A stretch of 64,000 nucleotides of DNA, taken from the NCBI GenBank assembly GCA_000091205.1, contig AP006497.2; one strand, given 5' to 3'. Below the pieces are notes generated by a model, which ran no database searches, was not told where the DNA came from, and saw only the letters and a program-made list of their open reading frames with translations. Of this stretch, positions 5,344 through 59,894 are shown in pieces; positions within the stretch are counted from its first letter, which is position 1; each line of letters starts with the position of its first letter. The stretch comes from Cyanidioschyzon merolae (Eukaryota). Both the position numbers and the translations under genes were made by a program.

Positions 5344-6631
5344 GAGCTACCAACCGTTTCCAACGCGGACACTCACAGCACGCGTCCCGGAGAGTCGCTG
5401 CTGGCTCGGGTAGCGGTAGCCGCGTTAGACGCTAGTCCTGGTATGTCACCAGGCGAAGGTATCGCCGCAAAAAAAAACAACGTGCTACGCAGTCCACACA
5501 CCGTGTACTGTGAGCGCGGTTTGGGTGCTGGTCACTGTAAGGCGCGAAAATCCGGAGACTCGAGGAGCTGCTCCACAACCGCTAAACGAATGAGTACAGG
5601 GTGCGCCTCGTTGACAGCTGAGCCTTTCACCAAAGGCGCCCGCGTTCAAGCGACGTCCGGCGAGAGCGTTGTACACTTCCAGACAGAAACACCGTTCACT
5701 CGGCACTGTCGTCTGCACTTGCAATCCGGTCTAAAAGCGTCCCCGACTAACCAGAACCCTAACAAGAGACGCTGAGTGTGCCGGCAACGACGCCTTGCTG
5801 ACGACGTAGAGCCGTTGTATCGCCGCCGGCGTCCGCATTATAGGCGACGGACGTCGCAGCGATAGCCCTTAAGAGACGTGATAAGAGGAAGGAGGTTACT
5901 TTCCCGACGGGGTATCCAAGTGAGGCCTGTTTGGGTACTGTGCCGGTTCATTGGACTCGATCAAGCATCGTGATAAGAGGAAGGAGGTTACTTTCCCGAC
6001 GGGGTATCCAAGTGAGGCTTGTTTGGGTACTGTACGTGTTCATTGGACTCGATCAAGCATCGTGATACGAGTGAGGAGGTTACTTTCCCGACGGGGTATC
6101 CAAGTGAGGCTTGTTTGGGTACTGTGCCGGTTCATTGGACTCGATCAAGCATCGTGATACGAGTGAGGAGGTTACTTTCCCGACGGGGTATCCAAGTGAG
6201 GCTTGTTTGGGTACTGTACGTGTTCATTGGACTCGATCAAGCATCGTGATAAGAGGAAGGAGGTTACTTTCCCGACGGGGTATCCAAGTGAGGCTTGTTT
6301 GGGTACTGTGCCGGTTCATTGGACTCGATCAAGCATCGTGATACGAGTGAGGAGGTTACTTTCCCGGCGGGGTATCCAAGTGAGGCTTGTTTGGGTACTG
6401 TACGTGTTCATTGGACTCGATCAAGCATCGTGATACGAGTGAGGAGGTTACTTTCCCGACGGGGTATCCAAGTGAGGCTTGTTTGGGTACTGTGCCGGTT
6501 CATTGGACTCGATCAAGCATCGTGATACGAGTGAGGAGGTTACTTTCCCGACGGGGTATCCAAGTGAGGCTTGTTCAGGTGCCCTATCGATTATATCGTA
6601 TTCATCACGAATCTCTGCGGTCACTTGGAAC
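5344..6631. promoter_or_regulatory. Divergent (head-to-head) intergenic region between tRNase Z and UTP10. About 55% of it is minisatellite.
   Basis: It lies between the start codons of two oppositely oriented genes and contains an A9 run at about 5465 and the 92-bp tandem array. Confidence 0.4.
5877..6575. repeat. 92-bp tandem minisatellite, about 7.6 copies, with 184-bp higher-order structure
   Basis: Units start at 5877, 5969, 6061, 6153, 6245, 6337 and 6429, with a partial unit at 6521. The unit is cgtgataagaggaaggaggttactttcccgacggggtatccaagtgaggcttgtttgggtactgtgccggttcattggactcgatcaagcat. The subsequence tgtgccggttc versus tgtacgtgttc alternates strictly in every other unit. The subsequence aagaggaagg versus acgagtgagg follows the pattern AABBABBB. 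Confidence 0.95.
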
Positions 6632-9600
6632 ATGAGTCGGCTGCAGGAACAACTACGAATCATTCGCGAACGAGAAGAGGCACATCGCATCCTCGGAGCG
6701 AGTCGCTGTACGGTGCTGTTTCCTGACGAAACTATTGCCTCCCGAGTCTCCTGGTCCGAGTTGGCTGCGCTCGCTCGCAATGGACTCGAACAGCTCATCA
6801 AGTTCGACCAGCGGTTTGCATCATTTCTCGACAGCGACCTGTTTCACCACCGCTACGTTATCGAGGGAGCGACAGCACTTCCAGCACTCGATCGCGGCCA
6901 AGAGTCAGCAGCAGCGAACGCGGAGACCCAACAGCTCATTCAACACTTCTGTTACCTCTTGGTGCCGTATTTTACCACGAGACCTGGACAAAAGTGCGTT
7001 GAATGGCTGCTTCGTGCGCACTCAGCAGGAGCACTGGACCCCGCGTCGCTGGTGGTCGCCGCCCTGCCCTATATTGGGACGGAGGCATTTGAGCGGCTCG
7101 TTGCGGCCTTGCACCTAGCGCAGCATGGTGTAGCAAAAGTGCGCTGGCACTGGCTAGAGCGAGTACACTCCTTGGACCACCTAGTAGAACAGAGCAGCGA
7201 ACTCAACTGGTTCGTGCCGTTTCTCCTGGACACCGCAGAAGCGCTCGTGCGTGCACGCGTTTCGGCCGAGGGCTGGCATCGACTGCTTCTCTGCTATGGC
7301 AGCACGCTGGTAGCCAAACATCCGCTACGAGCCGGAAGCGTCATTCGCTTGGTTACCTTGAGCCTATCTCGTGTTGGACAGGCAGCAGAGCGCGACAAGC
7401 ATCTGTGGCAAGCGTTCTGGTATGCTGCATTAGGGATGCTGGTCGCAGCCTATCGTGCCGTCGGTGCCGCAGTCCGCAGCGATGTATTTTCGGCGACTGT
7501 ACGAGCGCTGCTGCGACTTTATGTGCGCACGCGGACATGGTATTCCGGGGACCCAGCCTGGTGTCGAAGACTCACCCTTGTACTGGCCAACCTCTATGCC
7601 GGGTCTCCGCACCAGCCGTTTCCACATGAGTGCCTGGAGACGCTCTCCAGTTGCACAGATGAATGGTATAGGGTGCTGGGAGCCTTGGATGCGTCAGAAA
7701 CGGAGTCTTTGCGCACGGCTTACAGTTTAGCGCTGTTGGAATACTGCTGGCACCAGCAGGACGCTGATGATGATTGCTGGCACCAACTGGTTGCACGCTT
7801 GCCTCCATCCCCTTCGGGATGTAGCGCTTTGATCGGGCGCCTGTTGGAACTTTTCGACGCGACAGTGGCATCGGAGTCAGCTGATGCCACTAAGGTGCAT
7901 TCTGCAGCAGATGCGCAGATGATGCGGTCACAAAGGATGATGGACGCAAGCACTGAGACGCGGGCTTCACTATCTGCAGATCATGCGAATGCGAACTTGG
8001 AGACTCCTGGCTCTCCATGCAGCGCAACCGAGATGCAAGCTCCTGCTGAATGGCATGAAACAACGTCACATGGTCCGGAAGTGTTATTATCCAAGGTGTC
8101 GTGCAAGCGGGGAGGTCGCACCACGACCCATCCACCAAGTGATTCGGACGCTGATCGGGAACGCTTCCGGTCTGCAGCACCGACGACTGAAACGGCATCT
8201 TCGACGCTTGCAGCGACGCCTTCGGGGTCACTGGACGCCAAGCATAGAGCGCAGCCTGCTGGGATGCTCCCGGGGACGCGTGCACCATCAGCGTCTGCCC
8301 TGACGAGGGCAACGGTGGAGCCTGGAGACGCCTCAGCAGCCGACGCAGCATCCGGCGCAAGAGTCGTTTCCGCAGGCATCGGGGCGGAGGCGCCTCCAGA
8401 GGATACCTCTACTGCGCCGCACTCGCTTCGTCGTCGACAGGTACCCAGCGAGGTCGCAGCGCTCGATAGATCTCAACGCATATTGCGCCCGCTGGTAGCG
8501 CATGTCGATCCGGTTACGTTCTGGGAAGCGCTCTACGCTCATGAGCGTCGTTTTCGCGGCAGGGCCAGGTCGTGGACCCTGCTGTGCGAACGCTGCATTG
8601 CGGCGAGCAGCCCGCTTCGAAGCCTGCAGCATCCGGATCCCCGAGTGCGTACTCGGACCCTCCATGCGCTCAGCCAGGCGCCATCTGCAGTACAGGAGCA
8701 GGCGCTTCCCATCATCCTGGAGCTGCTCCAACAGCCGAACGGCTTCGAGGATGATGTGCAGCGAGCTCTCTGCGCACCTGATGACGCTACTTGTGGTGAC
8801 GTATTATGGTTGCGAGATCAACTGGTGCGGGTGGGTGCTCCAGCACTCGAATCCCTCCTACCGCGCGCGATGCTTCTGTATCTGCGCGCTGTAGGGGCGT
8901 GCCCTGTACGAGCGCTCGTGCGATGCTACCGACTGGCGAGTCGGTATCGCCACGGAATGAGTGCCTCGCCAAAGGAAGCCGATGAAATTCATAGCCGTGG
9001 ATTGGCCGAGGGCGTCATTGTCTGGGAGGCAGCGTTTGAACAACTCTGTGCACACTGGAAACTAGCCCCCGAGACGAATGCCGAGCGAGCTGCACGCCGG
9101 GCAGAGCCGGCTGAAATGTGGTTCAGGCGTCTAGGCGAACGCTTTGGACGCTCCAGAGGCGCCGAGGCTTTCACTGCGCTTCTGGAGCAGCTCGTCGACT
9201 TGACGATGAATGAGGATGAGAACGGCGTTACCGCATGTACTTTGCTACTCGAATGGCTTCGCACAGGCGCTGACTTGCTCGATGAGGTGACCATTTGGCG
9301 TTTCCTGGCGAGCATTGTGCATCGACTTGCCGCTGTCCATTGGCTAGCGCCCGTGTCGCGGATACTGCACACCCTCAACGATCGACTTGCACAGACAAAG
9401 CCGATCACGGATCCAATGTTGGTTATGCCTCATGTTCAGCGGATTCTAGAGGCGATTGCTTCGGTACTGGCTCGTGCGCCGCACCCGAGTGCCATCACCG
9501 TGCTGGCGGAAACGTTCATTTGGCTGGCGACGCAATCGAGTCCCATGGAATGCGAGGCGGTGTGCTATGCCCTGCAGCTTGACACTTACCGCGAACAAGT

Positions 9601-12600
9601 GCTCGAGTTTTTGGCCAACGCTGGTGTACAGGCGGCGCGCTGGCTCGCAGTCGGAGCGATTGAGCCGGTCGATGTGCCCGCTGCGCTCGCACTGCTGGAC
9701 ACGTGCTCTGCAAACCTGGGTGTCGCTGGTACAACTGCACTCTTGGAGCATTTATTCAGAGCCTGCGCAACGGATGCAACCTGGTCGGCCCAGTTGCGGC
9801 AACAAACGCGGCGCTTGCTGCACCAGATCGTGCACGAGCATCCCGAAAACGATCATCGAGAGCACCTCCTGGACCGCCACACTGCTCAACTGGTTGCGAC
9901 CTGTATACGACTACTGAAACCGCTCGACGATTCCGACTGGTGCGTGGTTGAACCGTTGTGGGCAGTATCCAAGGCGTCGACGGGTCTCGCAGTCATCCGA
10001 GCGCTCCTCGACGCCTTGCAGGAGCGGGCGACGGACGCAAGCATACCCCAAGCACCGTTGTCGCGCCCGCTTATCACAGCGCTGATCGCGGCCTGCCGCT
10101 GGCTCGCCACCGGACCAACGGAGCAGCCAGCGTTCACGCTCGTTGTACCACGCTCATGGTTAGTGGACCTGCTCCAAAGCAGTGCCTTCCACGCAGACAA
10201 CCAGAAGAGCTTGTGGTTACTGGAGGCTATCGACCTCGGACGTCTTGACTGGAAACCAGAGCCTCCTGCTGCATCCAATGAACACGTATCGACAACACCA
10301 ACAACAGCGACACGCTCCGATTCAGACCCATGGATGAGGTTCATTCAAGAACAGTTCGACCTGGCATGCAGCGGGACGCTCGATACGAATCGCCTCAGCT
10401 GTGTGCTGTGCGTGGCGCTCAGAGATGGAACAGCGCGTGCAGCGCTCCAAGCGCGCCACGTGGCAGCACTGCTGAACGCCAACAAAGCATCGACATGCAC
10501 GCATGTGCCGCAGGGTGATCACCAGCGATGGCGGCGACACGCAGCGCGCCTCCTGATCCAGTGCCTGCACGATGCGGGCACGCGTGGATCGGGGCTCCAC
10601 GGCGAGCTCCTGGAGGCGCTCCTGGGAGCTCTCTGCCAGCACCATGAATGGCTCCCTGCATCGGAACGGCCTGCGTATCGGGTGACGGTTGTCAGGGGCC
10701 TGGTGTGTTATGCGCAGAGCCTTCGGAGCGGGGACGCTGTGCACGCGATGTGGAACGTGGTATGCTTGACCGCGAGTCGCGATCTGCCTTTGGATGCAGT
10801 GCGCGATCTGTTTAGGGAGGTCATTGGGCAGGATGAGGCTGCGCTAGAGCCGGTGTTTCGGGCGCTTCGTGATGCGCGGCGCATACGCGCTGGTACGCTG
10901 GCGCCTGTGCACGCTCCGGGGGCAGCTCGGCGAGGCGATGCGACGCTGTCCGAGCATCGCTCGTCATTGTCGTCGTCGTCGTCGTCGTCGTCAACAACAA
11001 CAACAACAACAGCAACATCGCCGGTATCCGCAACTGCGATGGATCGCTTATGGCTACAGCTGTTGCAGGATGCGGCGGCTTGTGCGCCGAGGCACGTGCG
11101 CCGGCTGCTCTCGGAAGCGTCCGGGATTGCGCCGGCGGTACTCCAGCGTCTGCCTGAGTATCTGGATATGGGGCGCGTCTTCGGAAATGACAGCACCGAA
11201 GATATATTGAGCTTTTTAGAGACGCGGCATTTGCCAGTAGCGCTTGTGCAACACCTGGTGACGCAAGTATGGCCCTTGACGCGCATTCGTGAAGCGCTTG
11301 AGAAACGCGCACAGCCAGTCGTCATGGCGATTCTGGTGGAGCATCTGGTACGCGTGGCGCGGGCGGATGTACCGCGCAAACAGCATCACCAACGTCGGGA
11401 GCTGCAGGAGACGTTACGGGTGCTCGGCCGGCTCTTGCTGGAACAAAACGCTGATCCTGTGCTGGTGCGGCGCTGGCTCGAGCATCCGTATACGCGGACG
11501 CTGGGGCCGGGTATGTTGCCGCTGCTGGCCGCACATGCGGATCCTGTTTGTGTCGCATGCGCTGTTCGGACGTTTGGGCACAAAATGGTACCGCATTTGC
11601 CGCGCGTGTTGGCGCACTGGCCAGCACCGCCTGTTGTGCAAGCGCTCCTGGAGACGCTTCCCGAGTTCGTATCAGCGCCGTACATCCGCCAGCTTTGGGC
11701 GAGCATGTCGGAAAGCTTTCCCGACGATCGGGAGGCGGCAGCGATGCGTTCGCTGCTGGTTGAAGCGGCTCCACCGATGTCGATCCTGGAAGCGCTGAAA
11801 GCGGAAACGCAGCACCTGGCATGTTTGAGCGGCTGGAAAATGATGCACACGGAACCGTTCCAGAGTTTAACAGCGGCGCTTTCGAGCTGGGATTCAACTT
11901 TGGTCCAGCGCTCTTCCGAGCAAATTTTAGCTGTGATCTGGCGAGGTCTGGAAAGTCGTGAACGCATCATGATGAAAGCATTCTATGCAGGACGCGAAAC
12001 AGAGCCGTCCATAAGCGAGCAGCTCGAGCAGCTCGAGACGCATTGTATGGAAGCGTTGGTTACCATGGTGCTGGTGCTGCCACACCCGGCTTGTGGCGAG
12101 ATCCTCTACCGCAGCTTGCTCTGGTGCCAGTCGTTCGCAGCGGATGAGGACAGCGCGGGCGGAGATATCGCTAGCGAGCGCCCAGCGCGTCCGACAAAAC
12201 GACAACGAAGCAGCAGCAGCAGCAGCAGCAGCACTAGTAGTAGTAGTACTATCGGTAGTGACCCTGATGAAGCAGCACCTCTTGGAAGAGCGCACATGCG
12301 TCGCGCGTCTCATTGGCGACGCATCGTCTGGTTCAAACTTATAACAAAGTTCGCATCGCGTCTCGGTAGTCGCTTCCAGGAGTATGTCGAACTCGTCTGG
12401 GATACGATTGCGGAACACGCTCAGCTGGACGCGGCTGGTGCGGCGACACCAGACCCGACGCCCAGCGAGGCGGCTGAGGTACGAGTTGCAGCGCTCGAGA
12501 CGCTTGCGGTGTGCCTCGAAGCAGCGACACCATCGTGTGCGCAACTATCGAGCTCGCAATGCGAAACATGTCTGGATATCCTCGCCCAGTGGCTGTCCGA

Positions 12601-13012
12601 GGCGCACATGGCATCGCCGGTGGCAGCCACTGCCCTAGAGCGTCTGGTAGCGGCGCTGGCGCGCAGCGGCCTGTCCCAGCGAGTCACAACAGTGTCGACG
12701 ACGTCCGGCACGTCTTCGCCGCTGGTGCGCCTCGGACGTCTCATTCTGGTCATGCCTGAGGTTCGTCGAGTGCCGGCTTCGTCGGCAGCGGCAGCCTTGC
12801 GCTTACGGGTGCGCCTGGTGCGCGTCCTCATCGAAACGCTGGACGAGGCGTATCTGCCGCCGCTGCTGCCGCGAACCCTATCGTGGCTCGCCGAAGTGCT
12901 CGATAACCCCGACAGTGCCGTTGAAGAGATGGCACGAGATATTGCAAACCGCCTGAGTCGAATTTCGGGCGAAGATATCTTGACGCAGTTGCGCGAAACG
13001 CCAGCGATTTAG
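6632..13012 (+). CDS. UTP10: U3 snoRNP / SSU processome HEAT-repeat protein UTP10 (HEATR1), 2126 aa
   Basis: N-terminus MSRLQEQLRII is colinear with the HEATR1 N-terminus MTSLAQQLQRL. The block YFTTRPGQKCVEWLLRAH...VVAALPY matches HEATR1 YFLLKPAQKCLEWLIHRF...IACVLPY. The C-terminal HEAT repeat LPRTLSWLAEVLDNPDSAVEEMARDIANRLSRISGEDI matches the BP28CT end. The maximal ORF begins at 6479 inside the minisatellite, so I chose the first Met that aligns with homologs. Confidence 0.85.
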   Translation: MSRLQEQLRIIREREEAHRILGASRCTVLFPDETIASRVSWSELAALARNGLEQLIKFDQRFASFLDSDLFHHRYVIEGATALPALDRGQESAAANAETQQLIQHFCYLLVPYFTTRPGQKCVEWLLRAHSAGALDPASLVVAALPYIGTEAFERLVAALHLAQHGVAKVRWHWLERVHSLDHLVEQSSELNWFVPFLLDTAEALVRARVSAEGWHRLLLCYGSTLVAKHPLRAGSVIRLVTLSLSRVGQAAERDKHLWQAFWYAALGMLVAAYRAVGAAVRSDVFSATVRALLRLYVRTRTWYSGDPAWCRRLTLVLANLYAGSPHQPFPHECLETLSSCTDEWYRVLGALDASETESLRTAYSLALLEYCWHQQDADDDCWHQLVARLPPSPSGCSALIGRLLELFDATVASESADATKVHSAADAQMMRSQRMMDASTETRASLSADHANANLETPGSPCSATEMQAPAEWHETTSHGPEVLLSKVSCKRGGRTTTHPPSDSDADRERFRSAAPTTETASSTLAATPSGSLDAKHRAQPAGMLPGTRAPSASALTRATVEPGDASAADAASGARVVSAGIGAEAPPEDTSTAPHSLRRRQVPSEVAALDRSQRILRPLVAHVDPVTFWEALYAHERRFRGRARSWTLLCERCIAASSPLRSLQHPDPRVRTRTLHALSQAPSAVQEQALPIILELLQQPNGFEDDVQRALCAPDDATCGDVLWLRDQLVRVGAPALESLLPRAMLLYLRAVGACPVRALVRCYRLASRYRHGMSASPKEADEIHSRGLAEGVIVWEAAFEQLCAHWKLAPETNAERAARRAEPAEMWFRRLGERFGRSRGAEAFTALLEQLVDLTMNEDENGVTACTLLLEWLRTGADLLDEVTIWRFLASIVHRLAAVHWLAPVSRILHTLNDRLAQTKPITDPMLVMPHVQRILEAIASVLARAPHPSAITVLAETFIWLATQSSPMECEAVCYALQLDTYREQVLEFLANAGVQAARWLAVGAIEPVDVPAALALLDTCSANLGVAGTTALLEHLFRACATDATWSAQLRQQTRRLLHQIVHEHPENDHREHLLDRHTAQLVATCIRLLKPLDDSDWCVVEPLWAVSKASTGLAVIRALLDALQERATDASIPQAPLSRPLITALIAACRWLATGPTEQPAFTLVVPRSWLVDLLQSSAFHADNQKSLWLLEAIDLGRLDWKPEPPAASNEHVSTTPTTATRSDSDPWMRFIQEQFDLACSGTLDTNRLSCVLCVALRDGTARAALQARHVAALLNANKASTCTHVPQGDHQRWRRHAARLLIQCLHDAGTRGSGLHGELLEALLGALCQHHEWLPASERPAYRVTVVRGLVCYAQSLRSGDAVHAMWNVVCLTASRDLPLDAVRDLFREVIGQDEAALEPVFRALRDARRIRAGTLAPVHAPGAARRGDATLSEHRSSLSSSSSSSSTTTTTTATSPVSATAMDRLWLQLLQDAAACAPRHVRRLLSEASGIAPAVLQRLPEYLDMGRVFGNDSTEDILSFLETRHLPVALVQHLVTQVWPLTRIREALEKRAQPVVMAILVEHLVRVARADVPRKQHHQRRELQETLRVLGRLLLEQNADPVLVRRWLEHPYTRTLGPGMLPLLAAHADPVCVACAVRTFGHKMVPHLPRVLAHWPAPPVVQALLETLPEFVSAPYIRQLWASMSESFPDDREAAAMRSLLVEAAPPMSILEALKAETQHLACLSGWKMMHTEPFQSLTAALSSWDSTLVQRSSEQILAVIWRGLESRERIMMKAFYAGRETEPSISEQLEQLETHCMEALVTMVLVLPHPACGEILYRSLLWCQSFAADEDSAGGDIASERPARPTKRQRSSSSSSSSTSSSSTIGSDPDEAAPLGRAHMRRASHWRRIVWFKLITKFASRLGSRFQEYVELVWDTIAEHAQLDAAGAATPDPTPSEAAEVRVAALETLAVCLEAATPSCAQLSSSQCETCLDILAQWLSEAHMASPVAATALERLVAALARSGLSQRVTTVSTTSGTSSPLVRLGRLILVMPEVRRVPASSAAAALRLRVRLVRVLIETLDEAYLPPLLPRTLSWLAEVLDNPDSAVEEMARDIANRLSRISGEDILTQLRETPAI

Positions 13013-38237: not shown

Positions 38238-41024
38238 ATGGAGCGGTTGCTGACCGCCATTTCAAGATTGAAGCTGGGCACGCATCCCCAGGTCAGTTCG
38301 GTGGCTGACCACCAGCTGAAGTCTTCGGCAGCGGCGCTTTCGCGGACGCTATGCAGTACCAGTGACGGTACGCGCCTTTTCTTGCTTGGGGCAGACGGCG
38401 GGCTCTGGCTGACGAATGCCGAGGAACTGTGGCGTTCTGCACAGCGGCTCGGCGAAGAGTCGCGAACGGAGTTCTTCGTGAGCAGCTCTGGAACGCTGGG
38501 GACTCCCGTACACTTGACTCCAGCGTTACGCTTCAAGCCGATCGCTTGCGCGCTTTCGAGCTCGGATCGATTTCTTGCTCTTTATGACGAGGAGTTTTGC
38601 GCGGTTGTGGACCTCCAAACAGTGCCGAGTTCGCAGACTTGGCTGGATCAAATAGCCCCCGCACCTGTGACTGCACCCGCTGTGCTACTAGGTAGTCGAA
38701 CTAGTCAGAGGGCTGCTTTCACGCTACGAAGCATTCGCCAGGTAAGTTGGCATCCCTGGAGTGATGGACGCCTCGCTATCCTCTACGATGATGGCATGCT
38801 GGAGCTTTACGATACCTTGGAAGCTACGCTACCGGAGCAGACCTTGCGCATTCGCTTGCCGCTGTCGGGGAGTGAAGCACCTGCCGCAACAGGCGTCGAA
38901 GACACCACTGTTGCATCAGTCAGTATCCAGAACGTCTCTGGTGCGCTGGAGCAAACCGCAGGACAGCGCACATTGGTCAAAACTGAAGCTCCAGCGGCAT
39001 TCGCTTTCGGCCCATTAACGGAACCATCGGAATATCCTTGGGAGCTTGTCACGCTGTATTTGTTGCGAGAGTCTGATGGAGCGCTGTTTATTCTCTGTCC
39101 GTTTGCTCCTACTGGACTGCGCTTGCCCGCAGTGTGGGTAGAAGCTGTTCATGGTCAGCTGGAGACTGGAGCGCTCGCGGATACAGCAACTTCTTCGGCA
39201 GCAGACGCGACCACATGGGCCGAACTACAGATGCGTTTACGACGAGAATGGCTGGCACTCTGCACCAGTCGGCAAGCTCGTATGGATCTCGAGAGCCACC
39301 GCGCAGACTCCGAAAAAGCGCCTCCCGTATATCGTTTGCTTCGACCTCCACGCACCTTTAACATGCAATGGACGCCGCTTCTGCAGGGCCCGGTCCATAT
39401 CGAGCATGATGCTGCAACAGCAGCGAGTCATTGGGCACCCGCGTGCGGCATCCAGGTTCTTCCGAGCCCGCTAGGTCCGCTCCTGCTCCGTACCTGGTGG
39501 CACGGTGTTCTAGACGTGCTTGTCACTATGGAAAAGGTGGAACCTGTCTGGGCCCCGTCGTCAGAGTGTTCAGAACAGCTGCCCGCAGAGGAGGATGTTG
39601 CGCCATCGCTGCTTCTCTATGAGCGCATCTTCACGGGCGCTCCCTGTGCTCATTCGATCGTTGGCGAGAGCCCCACAGGGCTCTCCACGTCCTGTGCAGC
39701 AAACGATGAGCATTTACCACTTCCATGGGTGTCACCTGCGCAGACAGTGCCCCGTCTGCAACGCAGTGTGCTGCTCATACGCAGCCACCAGGGCGTCTCG
39801 GCCCTCTATTTGACGTGGCTGGATATGATCAGCCACGTGCTTTCCCCGAGAAGTTGGCCGTCTAGCTCGCTTTTCCATTCCGAACCGGATTCCAATGACG
39901 AGTTTATGGAAAGTGAGCAGCTTGAACAGCTGTTGGAGCAGTTGCCATGCTCCACGCTTGTGCAGTCGCTGGCGTCAGAGGCGGCTCCGCTGGGCCTCGC
40001 AGAGCTGCGCCTCCCCAGTACAGTGACACTTGTGAATGGCCCAGCCGCGAACCTGCTGCTTGCAATGGATGCTGATGGAGAGCACTTGCGAGCAGCGGCA
40101 TTGCACTGGTGGCGCTTACCGAGCGTGGGCGCGAGCCTCCGTTTCCCGCGCTCTTCCATGACTACGCGGGAACTCGAATACACGGATCTGGTGCACGCAT
40201 GTTCGCCGGCGGTGAAAGCAGGAGCAGCAGCAGCATCAACAACAACAACAACAACAGTAGCGACGAAAATACGTTCAGCATCGGGGCTAACGCCTTTGGA
40301 GCAAAAGCTCACGCAGGTATTCGGTTCCCTGGTGCCATGGCACACGTCCGGAGTCAGTCATGCTGCAGCGACAGGCGACGCGCAAGAACTTTGGGAACAG
40401 ACGCGAACGCTCGTTCTCCTTTGGCAGATGATACAGACGATTATCCAGCCGCTGCGACTTTTCTATGCACAAACGCTATCATCGACTATAGAACAGCTTC
40501 CTCTGAGACTGGAAACGAACGCACGTCAGTACAGCTACCTCCAACACCGCCTAGAAATGCTGCAAAGTCGAGCAAGAGACTTGGATCATCGCATTCGTAT
40601 CCTGGCGACAGGAATGAATGAAAATCTCCAAAAGCGCGCTGCAGGTCTATCGGAGCTGCTGCTGCATCGGAAACCTATGATCACTCCGCTGGAGCGCCAG
40701 TGTTTTCGCCAGCTCGAGCGCTATCGCGAACGCCTCTGCGAGTTCCAGCAGCGCCTTACGCAGTTACAACGGCAGGCTGCAGCGGCGCGGCAATCAGGAA
40801 GCAGGGCGCTGCCCGAGCTTGATATCAGGGAAGACTGGTCGCTGTTACGAAAAACCCAACAGCGTGAGATTCGTCAAGCTATCGAAGAGAACACCCGTCG
40901 TTTGGAACGGCTTTGCCAGGTTTCGCAGGAAACACGAGCGTCGATCGAGCGACTTGTGCATATGCACGACATGCGGTTCTCGTCGTTAACGGGAACGTGC
41001 AAAGACGACACTCGGATTCTCTAG
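38238..41024 (+). CDS. Nup88/Nup82-like nucleoporin, with an N-terminal beta-propeller-like region and a C-terminal coiled coil
   Basis: A 928-aa ORF. SIRQVSWHPWSDGRLAILYDDGMLELYD resembles the Nup88 block [28 protein letters not shown]. The C-terminal coiled coil ...PMITPLERQCFRQLERYRERL resembles the Nup88 C-terminus [24 protein letters not shown]. It contains a poly-T/A insertion. The assignment is from recall and is tentative. Confidence 0.5.
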   Translation: MERLLTAISRLKLGTHPQVSSVADHQLKSSAAALSRTLCSTSDGTRLFLLGADGGLWLTNAEELWRSAQRLGEESRTEFFVSSSGTLGTPVHLTPALRFKPIACALSSSDRFLALYDEEFCAVVDLQTVPSSQTWLDQIAPAPVTAPAVLLGSRTSQRAAFTLRSIRQVSWHPWSDGRLAILYDDGMLELYDTLEATLPEQTLRIRLPLSGSEAPAATGVEDTTVASVSIQNVSGALEQTAGQRTLVKTEAPAAFAFGPLTEPSEYPWELVTLYLLRESDGALFILCPFAPTGLRLPAVWVEAVHGQLETGALADTATSSAADATTWAELQMRLRREWLALCTSRQARMDLESHRADSEKAPPVYRLLRPPRTFNMQWTPLLQGPVHIEHDAATAASHWAPACGIQVLPSPLGPLLLRTWWHGVLDVLVTMEKVEPVWAPSSECSEQLPAEEDVAPSLLLYERIFTGAPCAHSIVGESPTGLSTSCAANDEHLPLPWVSPAQTVPRLQRSVLLIRSHQGVSALYLTWLDMISHVLSPRSWPSSSLFHSEPDSNDEFMESEQLEQLLEQLPCSTLVQSLASEAAPLGLAELRLPSTVTLVNGPAANLLLAMDADGEHLRAAALHWWRLPSVGASLRFPRSSMTTRELEYTDLVHACSPAVKAGAAAASTTTTTTVATKIRSASGLTPLEQKLTQVFGSLVPWHTSGVSHAAATGDAQELWEQTRTLVLLWQMIQTIIQPLRLFYAQTLSSTIEQLPLRLETNARQYSYLQHRLEMLQSRARDLDHRIRILATGMNENLQKRAAGLSELLLHRKPMITPLERQCFRQLERYRERLCEFQQRLTQLQRQAAAARQSGSRALPELDIREDWSLLRKTQQREIRQAIEENTRRLERLCQVSQETRASIERLVHMHDMRFSSLTGTCKDDTRIL

Positions 41025-52873: not shown

Positions 52874-53006
52874 AGCGCTTCGAGGCACGCACACGCCCCA
52901 GCAGTGATTGCTGTGCATTGCCGGGACGACAGCGCTGCGCCCAGTACCAACGGTGAGCGTTGCGCCTGAGTTCACAAAGACCCGTTTGTTTAGAGCGTTC
53001 CAGAGC

Positions 53007-54923
53007 ATGTCGAGTTCATCTGCAGAGCTTTTTGTGCGGGATCAGGCTGAGGAAGATGGTGCCTCGTCCCAGGGCGCGAATGTGGCTACGCGCTCGATTC
53101 CAAGGGCGCACGCCGGCATGAGCCTCGGCCCTATGATCGGACCCTACAGCCTTGGCCGAACACTGGGCGTCGGCTCTACTGGCAAAGTTAAGCTGGGTGT
53201 TCACGTGGAAACTGGTGAACTAGTTGCAATAAAAGTGATCCGAAAAGAGTTCATTGAGCGAAAGGAGTCGCTAAAGAAGAAGATGCAGCGCGAGATCGCT
53301 GTTATGAAACTGTGCGACCATCCTAATGTGCTGCGCCTGCTCGAAGTCTTTGAAACGAATACGCACCTTTTCCTGGTAACAGAGTACGCGGACGGTGGCG
53401 AGCTCTTCGACTATCTGGTCAAGCGAGGGAGCCTCGAACCAGACGAGGCGCGGCTATTTTTTCGTCAGATAATCGAGGGCGTCGACTACTGTCACCAGCG
53501 ATACATCGTTCACCGTGACTTGAAACCAGAGAACCTCTTGCTGGATAAGGAACATCGAATCAAAATAGCTGATTTTGGGATGGCAAGTATGCTGCCGCCG
53601 GGGAGTATGCTGGAAACAAGTTGCGGGTCGCCTCATTACGCCGCACCGGAGATTATCAGTGGTGAAATGTACAGTGGTTTTGAAAGCGATGTCTGGAGTT
53701 GCGGTGTGATTCTGTACGCGCTGGTTACGGGTAAGTTGCCATTCGATGATGATAATCTGCAGAGGTTGCTGCAAAAAGTGAGATGTGGGCTATACCATCT
53801 GCCGAGTTATCTGCCTCCTCAGCTCCGCTCTCTGATCCACTGCATGCTCACAGTGGACCCGAAGCGGCGAATTACCGTCGAAGGCATCAAAGCGCATCCC
53901 TGGTATCTGGGGAAGGGCGAGAAAGGTAGCGGACCACATCACTCGCAATCGACCGCAAGCGATGGGGCAACAGCTGAAGGCGCTGACGCCAGGGAATCGA
54001 GAACCATACCGCAGTCGCTGGAACCAGCGGCGCCGTTGTATCGAGAGCCGGTGCTGGATCCAGTTCCTGCGATCCTGCAGTCTTTAGTTGATCTCGGTTG
54101 GGGTGATTCGGACTCTTTGCGAGCGATTCTAGCGAGTGAGCAACCGAGTTTAGAGCGTGTCTTCTACCGGCAGCTCGAAATTCGCGAGCGCGAGATGAAA
54201 CAACAATCTGCGAATGATAGCGACGAGGGCGAAAGCGGAACTCCGAGCCCGCGCGCTGGAAGTGCAGCTGAGAAAGCCGCGGATATGTCATCGGCAATAG
54301 CTGCATTATCGAACGCAGAAGCGACGTCAGCGGTACGGACGCGAACGCGCCGACCGCAATGGTTTCCACCAGAGTGGTCGAATGCAACCGATGTGCCTGC
54401 TGGTGCTGGTGGTGGTGGTGGTGGTGGTGCTCCTGTTCAAGCCGCTGATCAGACCAATGACATACAGCATCGGCTCGCGCAAACGCACATCGGAGCTGAG
54501 GACGCAACCAAGGCAGCAGCGTCCACCGAGGCGGGCAATGCCGGTGTCCTTTGGGAGCGTCCGACAGTTGCCTCTGCGCCGCAGCGCATTCCGCGCGGTA
54601 CTGGAACGCATCACGGGGCGCACGAGAAGGAGAGCATATCGGGTGACACTGGGGAGCAGCCATCGGATGGTGCTGAAGCCCAGAATGCTGACGAGGACAT
54701 GTTCCTGGCCGACCTGTCAGGTCCGAAGAAGAATTGGTTCGATAGCCTCGGTCGCTACTTCTACTCGCGCCAGCGACGTCGCAGCCGAGGTCCCCCGTCG
54801 TCTCACTCGCAGAGCACGGACCAGACACCGAAAAACCCTACAACTTCAAGTAGCGATAACGGGAGCACGGCGACTGAGCAGAGTGCGGATACGCCCGTCA
54901 GCGCAGCGCACCTCTCATCCTAG
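53007..54923 (+). CDS. AMPK-related Ser/Thr protein kinase (BRSK/SAD- or MARK-like) with a UBA domain after the kinase domain
   Basis: Motifs LGVGSTGKVKLG (Gly loop), AIK, HRDLKPENLLLD, IADFGMAS (BRSK/SAD-type DFG+1 context), SCGSPHYAAPE and DVWSCGVILYALVTGKLPFDDDNLQRLLQKV. This is followed by a UBA-like block ILQSLVDLGWGDSDSLRAILASE. There is a poly-Gly insert encoded by (GGT)n at about 54389-54421. The maximal ORF starts at 52908, and an alternative start is at 53118. Confidence 0.85.
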   Translation: MSSSSAELFVRDQAEEDGASSQGANVATRSIPRAHAGMSLGPMIGPYSLGRTLGVGSTGKVKLGVHVETGELVAIKVIRKEFIERKESLKKKMQREIAVMKLCDHPNVLRLLEVFETNTHLFLVTEYADGGELFDYLVKRGSLEPDEARLFFRQIIEGVDYCHQRYIVHRDLKPENLLLDKEHRIKIADFGMASMLPPGSMLETSCGSPHYAAPEIISGEMYSGFESDVWSCGVILYALVTGKLPFDDDNLQRLLQKVRCGLYHLPSYLPPQLRSLIHCMLTVDPKRRITVEGIKAHPWYLGKGEKGSGPHHSQSTASDGATAEGADARESRTIPQSLEPAAPLYREPVLDPVPAILQSLVDLGWGDSDSLRAILASEQPSLERVFYRQLEIREREMKQQSANDSDEGESGTPSPRAGSAAEKAADMSSAIAALSNAEATSAVRTRTRRPQWFPPEWSNATDVPAGAGGGGGGGAPVQAADQTNDIQHRLAQTHIGAEDATKAAASTEAGNAGVLWERPTVASAPQRIPRGTGTHHGAHEKESISGDTGEQPSDGAEAQNADEDMFLADLSGPKKNWFDSLGRYFYSRQRRRSRGPPSSHSQSTDQTPKNPTTSSSDNGSTATEQSADTPVSAAHLSS

Positions 54924-55447: not shown

Positions 55448-57796
55448 TCACGCGACAGCCTGTGACGCTCGAGCCGGATCCAAATGCAGCGCATATTCGA
55501 GTCCATCTACCAGGGCATTCACAGATGCAACGATAATATTCGTATCCGCTGATACGGTCGTAAATCGTAGACCGCGTTTTCGGTCATGGAAAGAAACCAA
55601 GACTCTAGTGGTTGCGGCTGTCGCCGATTCCGAGTCCAAGATCCTGACTTTGTAGTCTTCTAGACTGATATGCTCGAGCTCGGGGAACGATCCCAGAAGC
55701 GCTCGACGCATTGCCGCGTTGACCGCGTCTACCGGGCCGTTGCCTTCCGCACACTCGAGCGTTGGTGCAGCACCATGCACGAGTACCTTCACAACAGCAT
55801 GGGTGTGCGTCTCGTTCCGCCAGACGGCCACAGAGGGATCTCGAGCAAGTGCCCTACGGCTATTTCTTTCGGGTATCTGAGCGCTCGGCAGAGGTGTTAC
55901 GAATAGTGGACCACCCGTTACCGGTGCCGCAGTACCATCGCGGGCGCCTTCCGAGAGCGATCGGGCAAGCGGTTCCGAAAACCAGCTATCTTCAGCATCC
56001 TCTGGGTCTTCGGGTGTAAAACAACCCTCCTGGTTCACATACAAAACGCGTTTGTTACCAGTGAAGACGGAAAAATCGACAAGTTCGAACGGCGCCACAT
56101 AATTGGGAACCGCTCGACGCCACATCATCGCTAGCGATGCCTCGGCGCCTTCGAACGTGAATCCCTTGTTCTCCAGCGCCTTGATACGCTCGAGTATCTT
56201 GGTAATACGCGCCTTCCAAACCGGATCGCGTTCATCAAAGGCGAGGTTCAAGGAGCGCAGTTTCGATTGAATGTTACCGCGTCCGCTGAGTTCGCTAACG
56301 AGTACTCGTGGCCGATTGCCCACCAAAGCGGGATCAATGAACTGGTAGCTGCGAGGGTCTTTCAGCATAGCGGCCACGTGGAGACCGCCTTTGTGCGCAA
56401 AAGCGCTCTCACCAACGAATGCACGCCATGGAACGTGCGGGCGATTCGCAATTTCGTCCACGAAGCGAGACACTGCCGTCAAATTCTGCAAGTGCGTCGT
56501 TGAGGCTACTACGGAATACCCCAGTCGCAGCTGCAAGATCGGGATAATCGACATGAGGTTGGCATTGCCAGTACGCTCACCGTAGCCGTTGACGCAGCCT
56601 TGGAGCAGCGTGGCGCCCCCGCGCACAGCTGCAATGGAATTCGCTACCGCCAGTTCCATATCGTTATGGCAATGGATACCCAAACGAACACCAGGTGACG
56701 ACTCAAATCGAGACTGCACCACACGCATAACATTTTCGACGACCCAGGGTGTAGCAGCGCCATTCGTGTCGCAAAGCACAAGGACGTCTGCGCCGGCCTC
56801 TACTGCCGCTTCCAAGCACTGCATCGCGTACGAAGCGTTCGCTTCATAGGCATCGAAAAAGTGCTCTGCGTCGAGCATGACCTCCCGTCCAGCTGCTTTG
56901 AGATACGAGACGGTGTCCCGAATCATCCGGATGTTTTCATCCAGACTCGTGCCGAGCACCTGCAGAACCTGAAAATCCCAGGTCTTGGCGACTATGGTTA
57001 CGGTGGGCGTTTCAGCGCGCAGCAGCGACCCTAGTTGCGGGTCCGCGTCGCAGGGAGTCCCTTTGTGTCGCGTTGCACCGAAAGCCACCAACTTTGCGTT
57101 ACGCATGCGCGGCAACAGTTCCTGCTTTGCCCGCAGGAAGAATTGTTCGTCCTTGGGATTGGATCCGGGCCAACCAGCTTCGATATACGCCACGCCAAGT
57201 TTCGCATCAAGCTCCGCAGCGATGCGCAATTTATCTTGGCAGGAGAGCGATATACCTTCGCCCTGGGTGCCGTCGCGGAGTGTGGTGTCGTAGATCTGGA
57301 TGTTCAAACCAGCGGTAGGTTGATCTAACGCATCCTTCCGGCCTTGGTCAACGTGCATGCAAGGCTGCCTAAGCAGAGACTCGGAGGCGTACTCGAACGC
57401 GGCACGTCGGCTTGTGCGTTGTATTCGATTGCGAATAGTCGAGCGACGCTTTCCGTGATTCCACTTCCCGGTATCGAAAGAAGAAAGCGCGACAGGTTCT
57501 GCTGAGAGGCCACGCCAGCGCCAGTAGACCGGAAGGCAGAACGCAGTTGCAGGGCGATGGTGATGAGTGCGCACACGCGCACGCGGCTGAGCGCACTGAG
57601 CCCAGCCAAGACCGAGTCCGTCACGACCTCCGCCGCTCGATCCAGAACGACACCACATCCCGGTCAGCAGCAGCATCAGTAGCAGCAGCCGTAGGAGTGG
57701 TCGTGCGCAAACAAACACAAACACACGAGAGAACGGTACACCCGAGAAACGTGTCGTGCGGCCACGAGTCCCAGGGAGTCGACGAGTTTCCAGCAA
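55448..57796 (-). CDS. cimA: (R)-citramalate synthase CimA (LeuA-related, Geobacter/cyanobacterial type) with a long N-terminal extension
   Basis: The catalytic core IQIYDTTLRDGTQGEGISLSCQDKLRIAAELDAKLGVAYIEAGWPGSNPKDEQFF...LVAFGATR...HCHNDMELAVANS...GCVNGYGERTGNANL...AFAHKGGLHVAA...VSELSGRGNI...GFTFEGAEASL...EGNGPVDA is colinear with Geobacter CimA (LYDTTLRDGTQAEDISF...IEGGWPGSNPKD...). Upstream of an internal Met at 57358 the ORF encodes about 146 aa rich in R/S/T, including (CTG)n-encoded LLLLMLLL. The start is uncertain (57796, 57676, 57658 or 57358). Confidence 0.8.
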   Translation of the reverse strand: MLETRRLPGTRGRTTRFSGVPFSRVFVFVCARPLLRLLLLMLLLTGMWCRSGSSGGGRDGLGLGWAQCAQPRARVRTHHHRPATAFCLPVYWRWRGLSAEPVALSSFDTGKWNHGKRRSTIRNRIQRTSRRAAFEYASESLLRQPCMHVDQGRKDALDQPTAGLNIQIYDTTLRDGTQGEGISLSCQDKLRIAAELDAKLGVAYIEAGWPGSNPKDEQFFLRAKQELLPRMRNAKLVAFGATRHKGTPCDADPQLGSLLRAETPTVTIVAKTWDFQVLQVLGTSLDENIRMIRDTVSYLKAAGREVMLDAEHFFDAYEANASYAMQCLEAAVEAGADVLVLCDTNGAATPWVVENVMRVVQSRFESSPGVRLGIHCHNDMELAVANSIAAVRGGATLLQGCVNGYGERTGNANLMSIIPILQLRLGYSVVASTTHLQNLTAVSRFVDEIANRPHVPWRAFVGESAFAHKGGLHVAAMLKDPRSYQFIDPALVGNRPRVLVSELSGRGNIQSKLRSLNLAFDERDPVWKARITKILERIKALENKGFTFEGAEASLAMMWRRAVPNYVAPFELVDFSVFTGNKRVLYVNQEGCFTPEDPEDAEDSWFSEPLARSLSEGARDGTAAPVTGGPLFVTPLPSAQIPERNSRRALARDPSVAVWRNETHTHAVVKVLVHGAAPTLECAEGNGPVDAVNAAMRRALLGSFPELEHISLEDYKVRILDSESATAATTRVLVSFHDRKRGLRFTTVSADTNIIVASVNALVDGLEYALHLDPARASQAVA

Positions 57797-58056
57797 TAGC
57801 TTTCGTCACGATCGCACCCAAAGGTAGATGTTGGCCAGCTGCGTCCAATCCTTTACAAAACCTTCACGTTTTAGACTATCCGCGTACACCGCACCGCCCT
57901 AGAGGCTGCTCGTACGCACCGCAACTCTTCCGTCGAAGCGAAAAGCACTACCACTACTACCACCACCACCAAAGAATCTCGCAGTCAAGGTGCTCGATGC
58001 AGGTACAAGTGCCCGGCGGCGCCGGCGTGCTACCCGAAAGCCTGGATCACAGCGCG

Positions 58057-58089
58057 CCTGCCTGCCTGCCTGGCTGCCTGCCTGCCTGG

Positions 58090-58124
<35 letters not shown>

Positions 58125-58192
58125 GCTGCCTGCCTGTCTGCCTGGCTGCCTGCCTGCCTGCCTGCCTGCCTGTCTGCCTGCCGGCGCGCCGC
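58057..58192. repeat. (CTGC)n tetranucleotide microsatellite with CTGG/CTGT variants, about 34 units
   Basis: cctgcctgcctggctgcctgcctgcctgg... read directly over about 136 bp. Confidence 0.95.
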
Positions 58193-58472: not shown

Positions 58473-59894
58473 TTGGTTACGGAGATTAGCTGCACTACTG
58501 AAGGAGGCATGGGGCAGTCGAGTGTCTACAAGGAGGCGTTTGTAACTGCTTTGAATTGCGGTGGAGGAGTTGCGAACGGTATCCAAGGTGAAAAACCCTC
58601 AGCAGGCGTCAGGAGGAAAGAGTCGCTGACGACGACGACGTGCCCTCGAACCAGTGCACCCACTTTTAAAAGCGGAGAGCGAAGATCTAGAACAGCCATT
58701 TGCCTTGAGTCTCGCTTTAAAACGCAGATAAATGATGGACGATGCGACTCGCCGTCGTGGGTCCAGGGAACGGTGCAGGCGTGCGGCCTGGCAGCGCACA
58801 CGCGGCTATGTTTCTGGTCGTATAGGCGAACGCAGGGTCGCCTTACACGACGCATGGCGCGCTCTAGTATACAAGGTTTGCGGGACCGATGGAGCATTTC
58901 GCCGGTGCGTCTGTATGACGCATCGTTATGGGTGGCAAGCGCAGGCGCGGTCGAGACCACCCTCTTAACGCTGTGGAAGGTACTGCGCAGCGAGGTGACC
59001 TGCGCTATGCGCGGCTGCAGTGACGTTCTCTCGAGTCCATATGCTAGTTTATTGGGCATTCCCCTGACTTTTTTCGGGGCGCTAACCTATTCCCTTCTTG
59101 CATTCTTTACGTTTCAGGCTCGGCGGGAAAGAGTGTCCAGAATGACATCCGGGGCTAGTGCGCAGAACGGTACTGCTCCAGTGGCCGATGCCGTCGACGC
59201 TATCCCGCTCGATGCAATATCTTTCCGATTGTTTGGGCGACAAGTTCGACTGCAGGGGATATCGTACCAAGATCTTATGTTTGGTGCGTCGACCTTTATG
59301 CTGGTATTCAGCGGCTACCTTGTATGGTTGCTGGTCTTCGAACTGCAAGCAGTTTGCCCGTGGTGCATATTCTCCGCCGCGAGCTCCGTCATCCTCTTTA
59401 CGCTCGCCTGTGCGATCGAGAATGCTTTTTATCAAGGTGAACGTTATCGAAGATGGAGCCGACTCTTCTGGGTCGCCGGATGCTCCACTGTGCTTTCGCT
59501 TTCAAGTGCAGCAGCTGCCTACGCAGCTGCACAGTGGAGTATGCGAGTGACAGCTACGGTTTCCGCGAGTGAGCTGTATGCGCCGCCACCAATCGAAAGC
59601 CATTCTTCTGAGTCGGCTGTGGCGCTCGCGAAACACCTCAGGTCCCTGGGCGCCCGAATGTACGGTGCGTACTGGTGCGAGCACTGCCACGCACAAAAAG
59701 AGCTTTTCGGCCGCGAAGCCTTCTCTCACATCGAGTACATAGAATGTTCCAAGTACGGGGTGAACGGAAAAATGAATCTGTGCAGAAAGCGGCACGTTCC
59801 GGGATATCCAACGTGGGAAATCCGCGGGGAGCTGTATCCGGGAAAGAAATCCCTCGATGAGCTCAAGGAAATCAGCGGGTACACTGGCCCGTAG
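58473..59894 (+). CDS. LTO1: VKOR (vitamin K epoxide reductase) membrane domain fused to a C-terminal thioredoxin-like domain (plant LTO1 / cyanobacterial VKOR type)
   Basis: VKOR loop cysteines and the TM1 motif (CAMRGCSDVLSSPYASLLGIPLTFFGALTY). Membrane CXXC active site (AVCPWCIFSAASSVILF). C-terminal Trx-like CXXC (ARMYGAYWCEHCHAQKELFG), which from memory is very close to the Arabidopsis LTO1 block MYGAFWCSHC. An N-terminal presequence of about 150 aa precedes the VKOR domain. Confidence 0.75.
   Translation: MVTEISCTTEGGMGQSSVYKEAFVTALNCGGGVANGIQGEKPSAGVRRKESLTTTTCPRTSAPTFKSGERRSRTAICLESRFKTQINDGRCDSPSWVQGTVQACGLAAHTRLCFWSYRRTQGRLTRRMARSSIQGLRDRWSISPVRLYDASLWVASAGAVETTLLTLWKVLRSEVTCAMRGCSDVLSSPYASLLGIPLTFFGALTYSLLAFFTFQARRERVSRMTSGASAQNGTAPVADAVDAIPLDAISFRLFGRQVRLQGISYQDLMFGASTFMLVFSGYLVWLLVFELQAVCPWCIFSAASSVILFTLACAIENAFYQGERYRRWSRLFWVAGCSTVLSLSSAAAAYAAAQWSMRVTATVSASELYAPPPIESHSSESAVALAKHLRSLGARMYGAYWCEHCHAQKELFGREAFSHIEYIECSKYGVNGKMNLCRKRHVPGYPTWEIRGELYPGKKSLDELKEISGYTGP

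Follow-up and report, generated by a model that had tools for sequence, protein, structure and literature searches.

A nuclear gene of the red alga Cyanidioschyzon merolae predicted to encode a probably plastid-imported (R)-citramalate synthase of the Geobacter type

The (R)-citramalate synthase (CimA) of the Geobacter sulfurreducens type was reportedly described by Risso et al. in 2008 (cited in PMC3150298). A threonine-independent citramalate route to 2-oxobutanoate and isoleucine is known from Geobacter, methanogens, and cyanobacteria (PMC3150298, PMC4320622, PMC4693188). Here we report on a gene for an enzyme of this type in a 64,000-nucleotide stretch of DNA from Cyanidioschyzon merolae (GenBank assembly GCA_000091205.1, contig AP006497.2), hereafter the window, in which an earlier note, made from the sequence alone, had singled out the open reading frame (ORF) at 55448-57796. 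Taking the evidence as a whole, the best explanation, and one that we consider probable, is that this is a functional nuclear red-algal (R)-citramalate synthase which is imported into the plastid, dates back to the red-algal ancestor, and was passed on with the secondary plastid.

The ORF was found exactly as the earlier note had described it, with 782 codons on the minus strand at 55448..57796, and the gene carries no introns. The ORF list had been made under translation table 11 (the bacterial code) with a start rule that accepts TTG. The candidate N-termini named in the earlier note are all correctly placed; three of them are in-frame ATGs (57676, 57658, and 57358), but 57796 is merely a TTG admitted by the bacterial rule. 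The protein scored 581.9 bits (cutoff, 450; E = 9.2e-175) with the NCBIfam equivalog TIGR00977, "citramalate synthase," whereas all LeuA models, TIGR00973, TIGR00970, and PRK00915 among them, remained below their cutoffs (267/517, 249.3/532, 234.4/598.7, and 47.1/697.4 bits). Scores with the Leptospira-type CimA model NF042433 (113.6/950 bits) and the archaeal LEU1_arch model TIGR02090 (231/484.75 bits) were also below cutoff, and those with the homocitrate synthase NCBIfam models were likewise far below it. Three Pfam families, HMGL-like PF00682 (1.6e-47), HCS_D2 PF22617 (6e-14), and LeuA_dimer PF08502 (1.1e-20), were matched above their gathering thresholds. These results establish family membership and bear out the assignment to CimA that had been proposed: judged by the models, the window protein is a full-length Geobacter-type (TIGR00977) citramalate synthase and not a LeuA-type enzyme. 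Its coding sequence and domains are laid out as follows.

55448..57658, minus strand: preferred coding sequence of a 736-residue citramalate synthase precursor, from ATG 57658 to the stop codon at 55448-55450
56459..57301, minus strand: catalytic DRE-TIM barrel (HMGL-like), delimited by the Pfam match (1.6e-47), motifs, and a predicted local distance difference test score (pLDDT) of >95
57263-57295, minus strand: barrel motif IYDTTLRDGTQ
57149-57175, minus strand: barrel motif GWPGSNPKD
56852-56869, minus strand: barrel motif AEHFFD
56759-56773, minus strand: barrel motif CDTNG
56660-56674, minus strand: barrel motif HCHND
56555-56590, minus strand: barrel motif NGYGERTGNANL
56168..56416, minus strand: post-barrel helical subdomain (HCS_D2; Pfam 6e-14), with FAHKGGLHV at 56375-56401
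55871..56026, minus strand: Cyanidiales-specific insertion of ~55 to 70 residues in the C-terminal regulatory domain, from the alignment
55490..55819, minus strand: C-terminal LeuA_dimer allosteric and dimerization domain (Pfam 1.1e-20), with AEGNGPVD at 55727-55750 and YKVRILD at 55634-55654

The motifs quoted in the earlier note and the C-terminal LeuA_dimer domain were thus all recovered, and the colinearity with bacterial CimA that it had claimed for the whole length holds except for an N-terminal extension and the insertion in the regulatory domain. The residues of the barrel motifs are invariant in 58 homologs, as are the metal-binding and catalytic residues of the DRE-TIM superfamily (R128/D129, E265/H266, and H329/H331 in the numbering of the 736-residue form), and AEGNGPVD and YKVRILD of the LeuA_dimer domain show little variation across the alignment. 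When the 736-residue form was modeled with AlphaFold2 from a 58-sequence alignment, the TIM barrel (residues 120 to 400) reached a pLDDT of >95, and the post-barrel and regulatory domains were also modeled with good confidence. Foldseek searches of the PDB with this model returned the catalytic domains of homocitrate synthase, methylthioalkylmalate synthase, LeuA, and Leptospira CimA, at identities of ≤29%.

Upstream of the barrel, the frame contains the following features that bear on the translation start.

57302..57658, minus strand: N-terminal extension of ~119 codons, putative plastid transit peptide (from composition, pLDDT, and the open frame)
57530-57547, minus strand: conserved A-F-C motif within the extension, ~40 residues after Met 57658 and common to the three closest lineages
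57356..57358, minus strand: internal ATG (M147), 21 codons before the IYDTT motif, a possible start that would give 636 residues without a presequence
57674..57676, minus strand: first in-frame ATG in the sequence (M41 of the mechanical ORF), an alternative start giving 742 residues
57677..57796, minus strand: open frame 5' of the first ATG, 40 codons without an ATG, beginning at the TTG of the ORF rule and most likely an untranslated 5' region

The extension is arginine-rich, with 20 R/K and 8 D/E in 122 residues, so the earlier description of it as basic stands; its description as hydroxylated does not, since Ser plus Thr make up 13% of the extension and ~12% of the mature part. Residues 1 to 109 are predicted to be disordered (pLDDT, ~30). 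The frame 5' of the YDTT motif is open for 171 codons in the window, 131 in a JGI contig, 161 in Cyanidiococcus, and 125 in Cyanidium, whereas the other five frames over the same four spans contain 1 to 8 stops each. The ratio of nonsynonymous to synonymous substitution rates (dN/dS) was discarded for the extension as uninformative, because between lineages synonymous sites are saturated and amino acid identity is 21 to 28%; maintenance of the open frame was used as coding evidence in its place. With such divergence, the open frame does not simply reflect inherited similarity, and, given how often stops occur in the other frames, we estimate that four such open stretches would arise by chance with a probability of ~1e-4.

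In a MAFFT alignment, the two closest lineages also have a Met (L002, MGFEGG; L003, MSLGGG) opposite ATG 57658, which has a purine (G) at −3. The 736-residue form is called in metagenomes (P0122), a 742-residue gene call (P0001) lies on an ENA contig, and a metagenome contig from JGI encodes the same 742-residue product as the window. A plastid-type presequence is present on every other algal ortholog examined. Red-algal N-termini begin with MALFVG (Porphyridium), MVGFVQ (Rhodosorus), MSVAFVP, MSSLAFLAP, or MLEEAFVS, and ochrophyte orthologs carry a signal peptide followed by an ASAFAP-type motif (Extubocellulus, ...SHQASAFAP; Tribonema, ...SQSAAAFRS; P0114, ...VVRSAFGF). Transit peptides bearing phenylalanine are typical of Rhodophyta, including C. 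merolae, and also of red-derived complex plastids (PMC9407449, PMC2222254), and in rhodophytes the phenylalanine or another aromatic residue lies within the first few residues (PMC2222254, PMC9407449). The AFC motif was matched by eye with the MAFV N-terminus of Cyanidium; MAFFT places the two in different columns. Unlike other algae, the window lineage, Cyanidiococcus, and a third lineage (P0003) have lost the Met before the AF motif and start ~20 to 40 residues further upstream. A rapidly evolving, basic, disordered extension with a preserved frame fits a transit peptide, and the protein is probably imported into the plastid, with ATG 57658 (or 57676) as the most likely translation start. 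The organelle-targeting presequence suggested in the earlier note is therefore plausible, given the frame open in four lineages, the predicted disorder, and the plastid signals on homologs.

An observation on a deposited gene model concerns the same region. In Cyanidiococcus yangmingshanensis (L003, GCA_026122185.1; positions 3500-4000), the frame stays open for ~140 codons 5' of the 627-residue model, and this upstream frame contains the conserved Met and the AFC motif, so that the deposited model probably lacks a 5' part of the coding sequence.

The closest proteins to the window protein were those of Cyanidiococcus yangmingshanensis (80% identity), a JGI/NCBI assembly (77%), and Cyanidium caldarium (64%). 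The exact protein was found, among the database matches, only on JGI and ENA metagenome contigs. The best 120 database matches comprised red algae, ochrophytes, and then bacteria, including Chloroflexota, with no green-plant or glaucophyte sequence among them. Orthologs were present in Cyanidiophyceae, Galdieria, Porphyridium, Timspurckia, Rhodosorus, Rhodochaete, Gracilariopsis, Gracilaria, and Agarophyton among red algae and in Ectocarpus, Pylaiella, Discosporangium, Chrysoparadoxa, Tribonema, and the diatoms Extubocellulus and Arcocellulus among ochrophytes. The rarity implied by the earlier note was therefore overstated: the gene is found across the red algae as well as in brown algae, diatoms, and a xanthophyte, and UniRef already lists several of the orthologs as (R)-citramalate synthase. 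Prokaryotic sequences were collected by a motif scan of one genome per species, which gave 80 named loci, mostly from Anaerolineae and other Chloroflexota; one of the scan patterns, GWPGSNPK, misses cyanobacteria (GWPGANPKD), and 12 named cyanobacterial CimA proteins were added through a protein search with a cyanobacterial query. In a neighbor-joining tree of 110 sequences (Kimura distances, 515 columns, 200 bootstraps), all 24 algal sequences formed one clade (100% bootstrap), within which red algae formed a clade at 95.5%. The eukaryotic sequences are thus monophyletic, as expected for a gene spread by red-lineage secondary endosymbiosis: the clade excludes bacteria, and its ochrophyte members carry ASAFAP-type bipartite signals.

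According to the preferred reading, translation would begin at ATG 57658 (or 57676) and give a precursor whose basic, disordered N-terminus of ~110 to 120 residues would act as the plastid transit peptide. The DRE-TIM barrel would, within the stroma, form (R)-citramalate from acetyl-CoA and pyruvate, the latter in preference to 2-oxoisovalerate, the isopropylmalate isomerase and dehydrogenase of the leucine pathway would take citramalate to 2-oxobutanoate, and 2-oxobutanoate would enter isoleucine synthesis without threonine deaminase, with feedback control, in a CimA presumably by isoleucine, exerted through the C-terminal LeuA_dimer domain. The single clade of red algae and ochrophytes with red plastids suggests that the gene was present in the red-algal ancestor and was handed to ochrophytes with the secondary plastid. 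Enzymatic activity, plastid import, the role in the pathway, and regulation are here predictions from sequence.

Several points weigh against this reading. With a start at 57658 the protein begins with MWCRSG, with a tryptophan at position 2 and the first phenylalanine at position 40; relatives begin with MGF (L002), MKLF or MSL (L003), and MAFV (Cyanidium). The conserved AF motif lies ~40 residues into the protein and not among its first few residues, and the Cyanidiococcus NCBI model (627 residues) and many metagenome gene calls (636 residues) begin at the internal Met. The tree was made by neighbor joining only, with backbone bootstraps of 4 to 60%, its bacterial sample is biased, consisting of best matches to the window protein, and its cyanobacterial sample (12 named sequences plus 1) is without early-branching lineages. 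A sequence search and Foldseek found no PDB structure from the TIGR00977 subfamily (identities of at most 29%), so that substrate specificity is predicted from the equivalog hidden Markov model, and a full-text literature search returned no study of an algal citramalate synthase and no activity, expression, or localization data for one.

The first set of these points could be accommodated by a start at the internal ATG 57358, which would yield a 636-residue cytosolic enzyme with the upstream stretch untranslated or, in a variant, two starts and dual localization. The three closest lineages, L002 and L003 included, all have a Met near this position, the gene calls just mentioned begin there, and the absence of an early phenylalanine after 57658 would be explained. 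We nevertheless regard this alternative as unlikely. It leaves a frame that is stop-free for 125 to 171 codons in four lineages with saturated sites, against 1 to 8 stops in the other frames, to a chance of ~1e-4, and two in-frame ATGs lie upstream, where a scanning ribosome would reach them earlier. Moreover, Cyanidium has no Met at this position but has the classical MAFV N-terminus, and the presequences of the other algal orthologs examined are of plastid type.

The origin of the gene is a separate matter. The earlier note had called it bacterial or cyanobacterial in type and suggested endosymbiotic or horizontal gene transfer, and a gene derived from the plastid ancestor could be masked by fast evolution of CimA in modern cyanobacteria. 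Descent from the plastid ancestor is attractive in that cyanobacteria possess the same TIGR00977-type enzyme, the gene product probably works in the plastid, and the algae share the cyanobacterial state at 3 of 22 diagnostic columns; in addition, the cyanobacterial stem is long (0.213), so that distance methods could misplace the clade. In the tree, however, cyanobacteria formed a separate clade (100% bootstrap), and the algal clade, which lies outside it, is not sister to the sampled cyanobacteria. Mean identity of red-algal proteins was 47.6% to cyanobacteria, lower than that to Chloroflexota (53.2%; maximum, 61.4%), to other bacteria (50.4%), or between cyanobacteria and Chloroflexota (51.7%). 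At the 22 columns diagnostic for cyanobacteria, the algae carry the state of other bacteria in 370 of 528 cells, e.g., GWPGSNPKD and not GWPGANPKD, and the cyanobacterial state in 78, and the lack of green-plant and glaucophyte sequences among the best 120 matches also argues against descent from the plastid ancestor. A cyanobacterial, endosymbiotic origin is thus not supported by the separate clades, the lower identity, and the diagnostic columns, and we hold the masked transfer to be improbable. The comparisons favor the view that the red-algal ancestor acquired the gene once, from a bacterium of another group, and that the gene was later inherited along with the secondary red plastid.

Whether the protein might be the alga's own 2-isopropylmalate synthase (IPMS), or a promiscuous enzyme with both IPMS and citramalate synthase activities, was considered because automatic annotation at JGI gives the name "2-isopropylmalate synthase" to it and to related proteins. 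The protein has its fold and domain set in common with LeuA, and with no structure of the subfamily in the PDB the specificity-determining residues cannot be read from one. This alternative is very unlikely. The LeuA models fail and the citramalate synthase equivalog passes, NCBI and UniRef call the orthologs and bacterial relatives citramalate synthase, and red algae have a separate canonical IPMS (543 bits) as well as a threonine ammonia-lyase (469 bits), with best matches to Phytophthora proteins, in a set that includes C. merolae (PMC5592239, Table 1). Given this canonical homolog, CimA is a further member of the family, distinct from the alga's LeuA, and the proposed route through citramalate would run parallel to the threonine route.

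The gene is surrounded by genes for an XMAP215/CLASP TOG protein, Noc2, an AP-complex mu subunit, a JmjC protein, and a long-form tRNase Z, together with a protein kinase, a VKOR-family protein, and an MFS transporter. The large neighboring ORFs are all uninterrupted, which fits an intron-poor eukaryote. The gene order VKOR-CimA-kinase(-RNase PH) is kept in Cyanidiococcus and on one JGI Cyanidiales contig, and CimA-kinase-RNase PH is kept in Cyanidium. The GC content of the CimA gene (0.563) and that at third codon positions (0.591) are the same as in neighboring genes. A near-identical metagenome allele differs from the window gene by 9 synonymous and 2 nonsynonymous changes, and in the three closest lineages the proportion of nonsynonymous differences (pN) in the conserved domains is far below that of synonymous differences (pS). 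From its eukaryotic flanks, matching composition, kept gene order, and the 9 versus 2 allele differences, CimA is a nuclear gene that has long been resident and is under purifying selection, and the earlier note was right to see a eukaryotic context in which contamination is unlikely. The reading of the gene as a bacterial contaminant, a recently transferred gene, or a pseudogene in decay, which could appeal to the bacterial nature of its best non-algal relatives and to its lack of introns, is effectively refuted: contamination and recent transfer are ruled out by the position amid a 64-kb run of eukaryotic genes, the order kept in three other Cyanidiales assemblies, and the neighbor-like composition, decay is ruled out by the intact frame, the full set of invariant catalytic residues, and the 9:2 ratio, and the absence of introns is in keeping with the other eukaryotic ORFs of the window, which are long and uninterrupted.

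The insertion that interrupts the LeuA_dimer domain is lineage specific; in the homolog alignment it is present only in the window protein, Cyanidiococcus, P0003, and Cyanidium, and other algae lack it. Residues 545 to 596, which correspond to the insertion, have a pLDDT of 32 to 49, and among the three closest lineages pN (0.21 to 0.35) is below pS (0.66 to 0.88), from which we infer that the insertion is coding and only loosely constrained, being predicted to be disordered and under purifying selection. Two metagenome-assembled genomes labeled Anaerolinea or Anaerolineae (L005 and L007, with CimA proteins of 592 and 558 residues) gave the best tblastn E values to the window protein. These two proteins have an insertion of their own, ~30 to 40 residues long, at about the site of the algal insertions in the regulatory domain, which would make this loop a recurrent insertion site.

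Further observations were made on the surroundings of the gene. The adjoining VKOR-family gene lies at 58473-59894 (plus strand), and its C-terminal part carries a CxxC motif (WCEHC). The Ser/Thr protein kinase gene at 52908-54923 (plus strand) converges tail to tail with CimA, an adjacency that is kept as far as Cyanidium; the C-terminal half of the kinase is long and of low complexity, with a poly-Gly run near 54,400. In the intergenic region between the divergent CimA and VKOR genes, a (GCCT)n microsatellite of ~32 copies (58056-58182) accounts for the spurious ORFs, "CLPACLPA" and "GRQAGRQA," that appear on both strands. Contigs of 3,548 nucleotides from JGI that carry the exact protein were considered as transcript evidence and rejected; they were read as broken genomic contigs, since by calculation from contig coordinates they end at the poly-Gly stretch of the kinase (~54,410) and ~100 nucleotides from the (GCCT)n array. 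Elsewhere in the window, a 92-bp tandem repeat of 7.6 copies (5877-6575; 95% matches; score, 1258) lies just upstream of, and extends into the start of, a 2,177-codon ORF at 6479-13012 (plus strand). Neither this ORF nor that of 928 codons at 38238-41024 (plus strand) matched a Pfam family at E ≤ 1e-5.

The bacterial family is well known, and the algal orthologs had already been annotated automatically: UniRef gives the name (R)-citramalate synthase to those of Cyanidium, Galdieria, Porphyridium, Gracilariopsis, Rhodosorus, and Timspurckia, while JGI labels the window protein 2-isopropylmalate synthase. No general principle is altered. Should the enzyme be active and located in the plastid, red algae, brown algae, and diatoms would have a second entry into isoleucine that bypasses threonine deaminase, a point of relevance to metabolic models and 13C-flux studies of red-lineage algae, and it would add to the plastid amino acid enzymes of non-cyanobacterial origin. 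It would also help to explain citramalate in brown seaweeds, where metabolomics has detected the compound, its role being still a matter for investigation and a fungal source one possibility (PMC10341635); the Ectocarpus and Pylaiella orthologs, with their predicted plastid targeting, offer what may be a simpler explanation. Combining these strands, we tentatively put forward, as a possibility slightly less likely than not, that a single ancient transfer from a non-cyanobacterial bacterium, with Chloroflexota/Anaerolineae as the closest sampled relatives, gave the red-algal ancestor a plastid-targeted CimA that spread to ochrophytes, supports threonine-independent isoleucine synthesis in the plastid, and accounts for the citramalate of brown algae as made by the algae themselves. 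If so, the red lineage, unlike green plants, would have a threonine-independent plastid route to isoleucine.

Among known systems, the window protein most resembles CimA of the Geobacter sulfurreducens type (TIGR00977, EC 2.3.1.182), in that it passes the equivalog and has the same three domains and the same invariant motifs; its identity to the closest sampled bacterial members of TIGR00977, mainly from Chloroflexota, is 51 to 58%. It differs in being encoded by a nuclear gene, in its presequence of ~120 residues, and in the Cyanidiales insertion of ~55 to 70 residues, and its catalysis is predicted from sequence. The (R)-citramalate synthases of other red algae and ochrophytes are its orthologs, in one clade and with N-terminal targeting extensions, and the most distant of them still share down to ~53% of aligned columns. 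With cyanobacterial CimA it has subfamily and architecture in common and would have the same function in an oxygenic phototroph, but the cyanobacterial proteins form a separate clade, are 44 to 47% identical over the full length (45 to 51% in trimmed columns), and differ diagnostically in GWPGANPKD and IHTHND. The citramalate pathway has been reported in Cyanothece (PMC4320622, PMC4693188). LeuA/IPMS (TIGR00973/TIGR00970) shares the DRE-TIM Claisen-condensing superfamily and the LeuA_dimer domain, but all LeuA models failed with the window protein. The citramalate synthase of apple reportedly arose by neofunctionalization of a plant IPMS (Sugimoto et al., 2021, cited in PMC10341635) and makes the same product for isoleucine and esters; it represents an independent origin of the activity. 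CimA of Leptospira interrogans (LiCMS; PDB 3BLE/3BLI) and that of methanogens have the same reaction and fold, with a TM-score of ~0.85 (target normalized) for the catalytic domain. Unlike the window protein, however, Leptospira CimA (NF042433) and methanogen CimA (the TIGR02090 group) belong to different subfamilies, at 20 to 23% identity.

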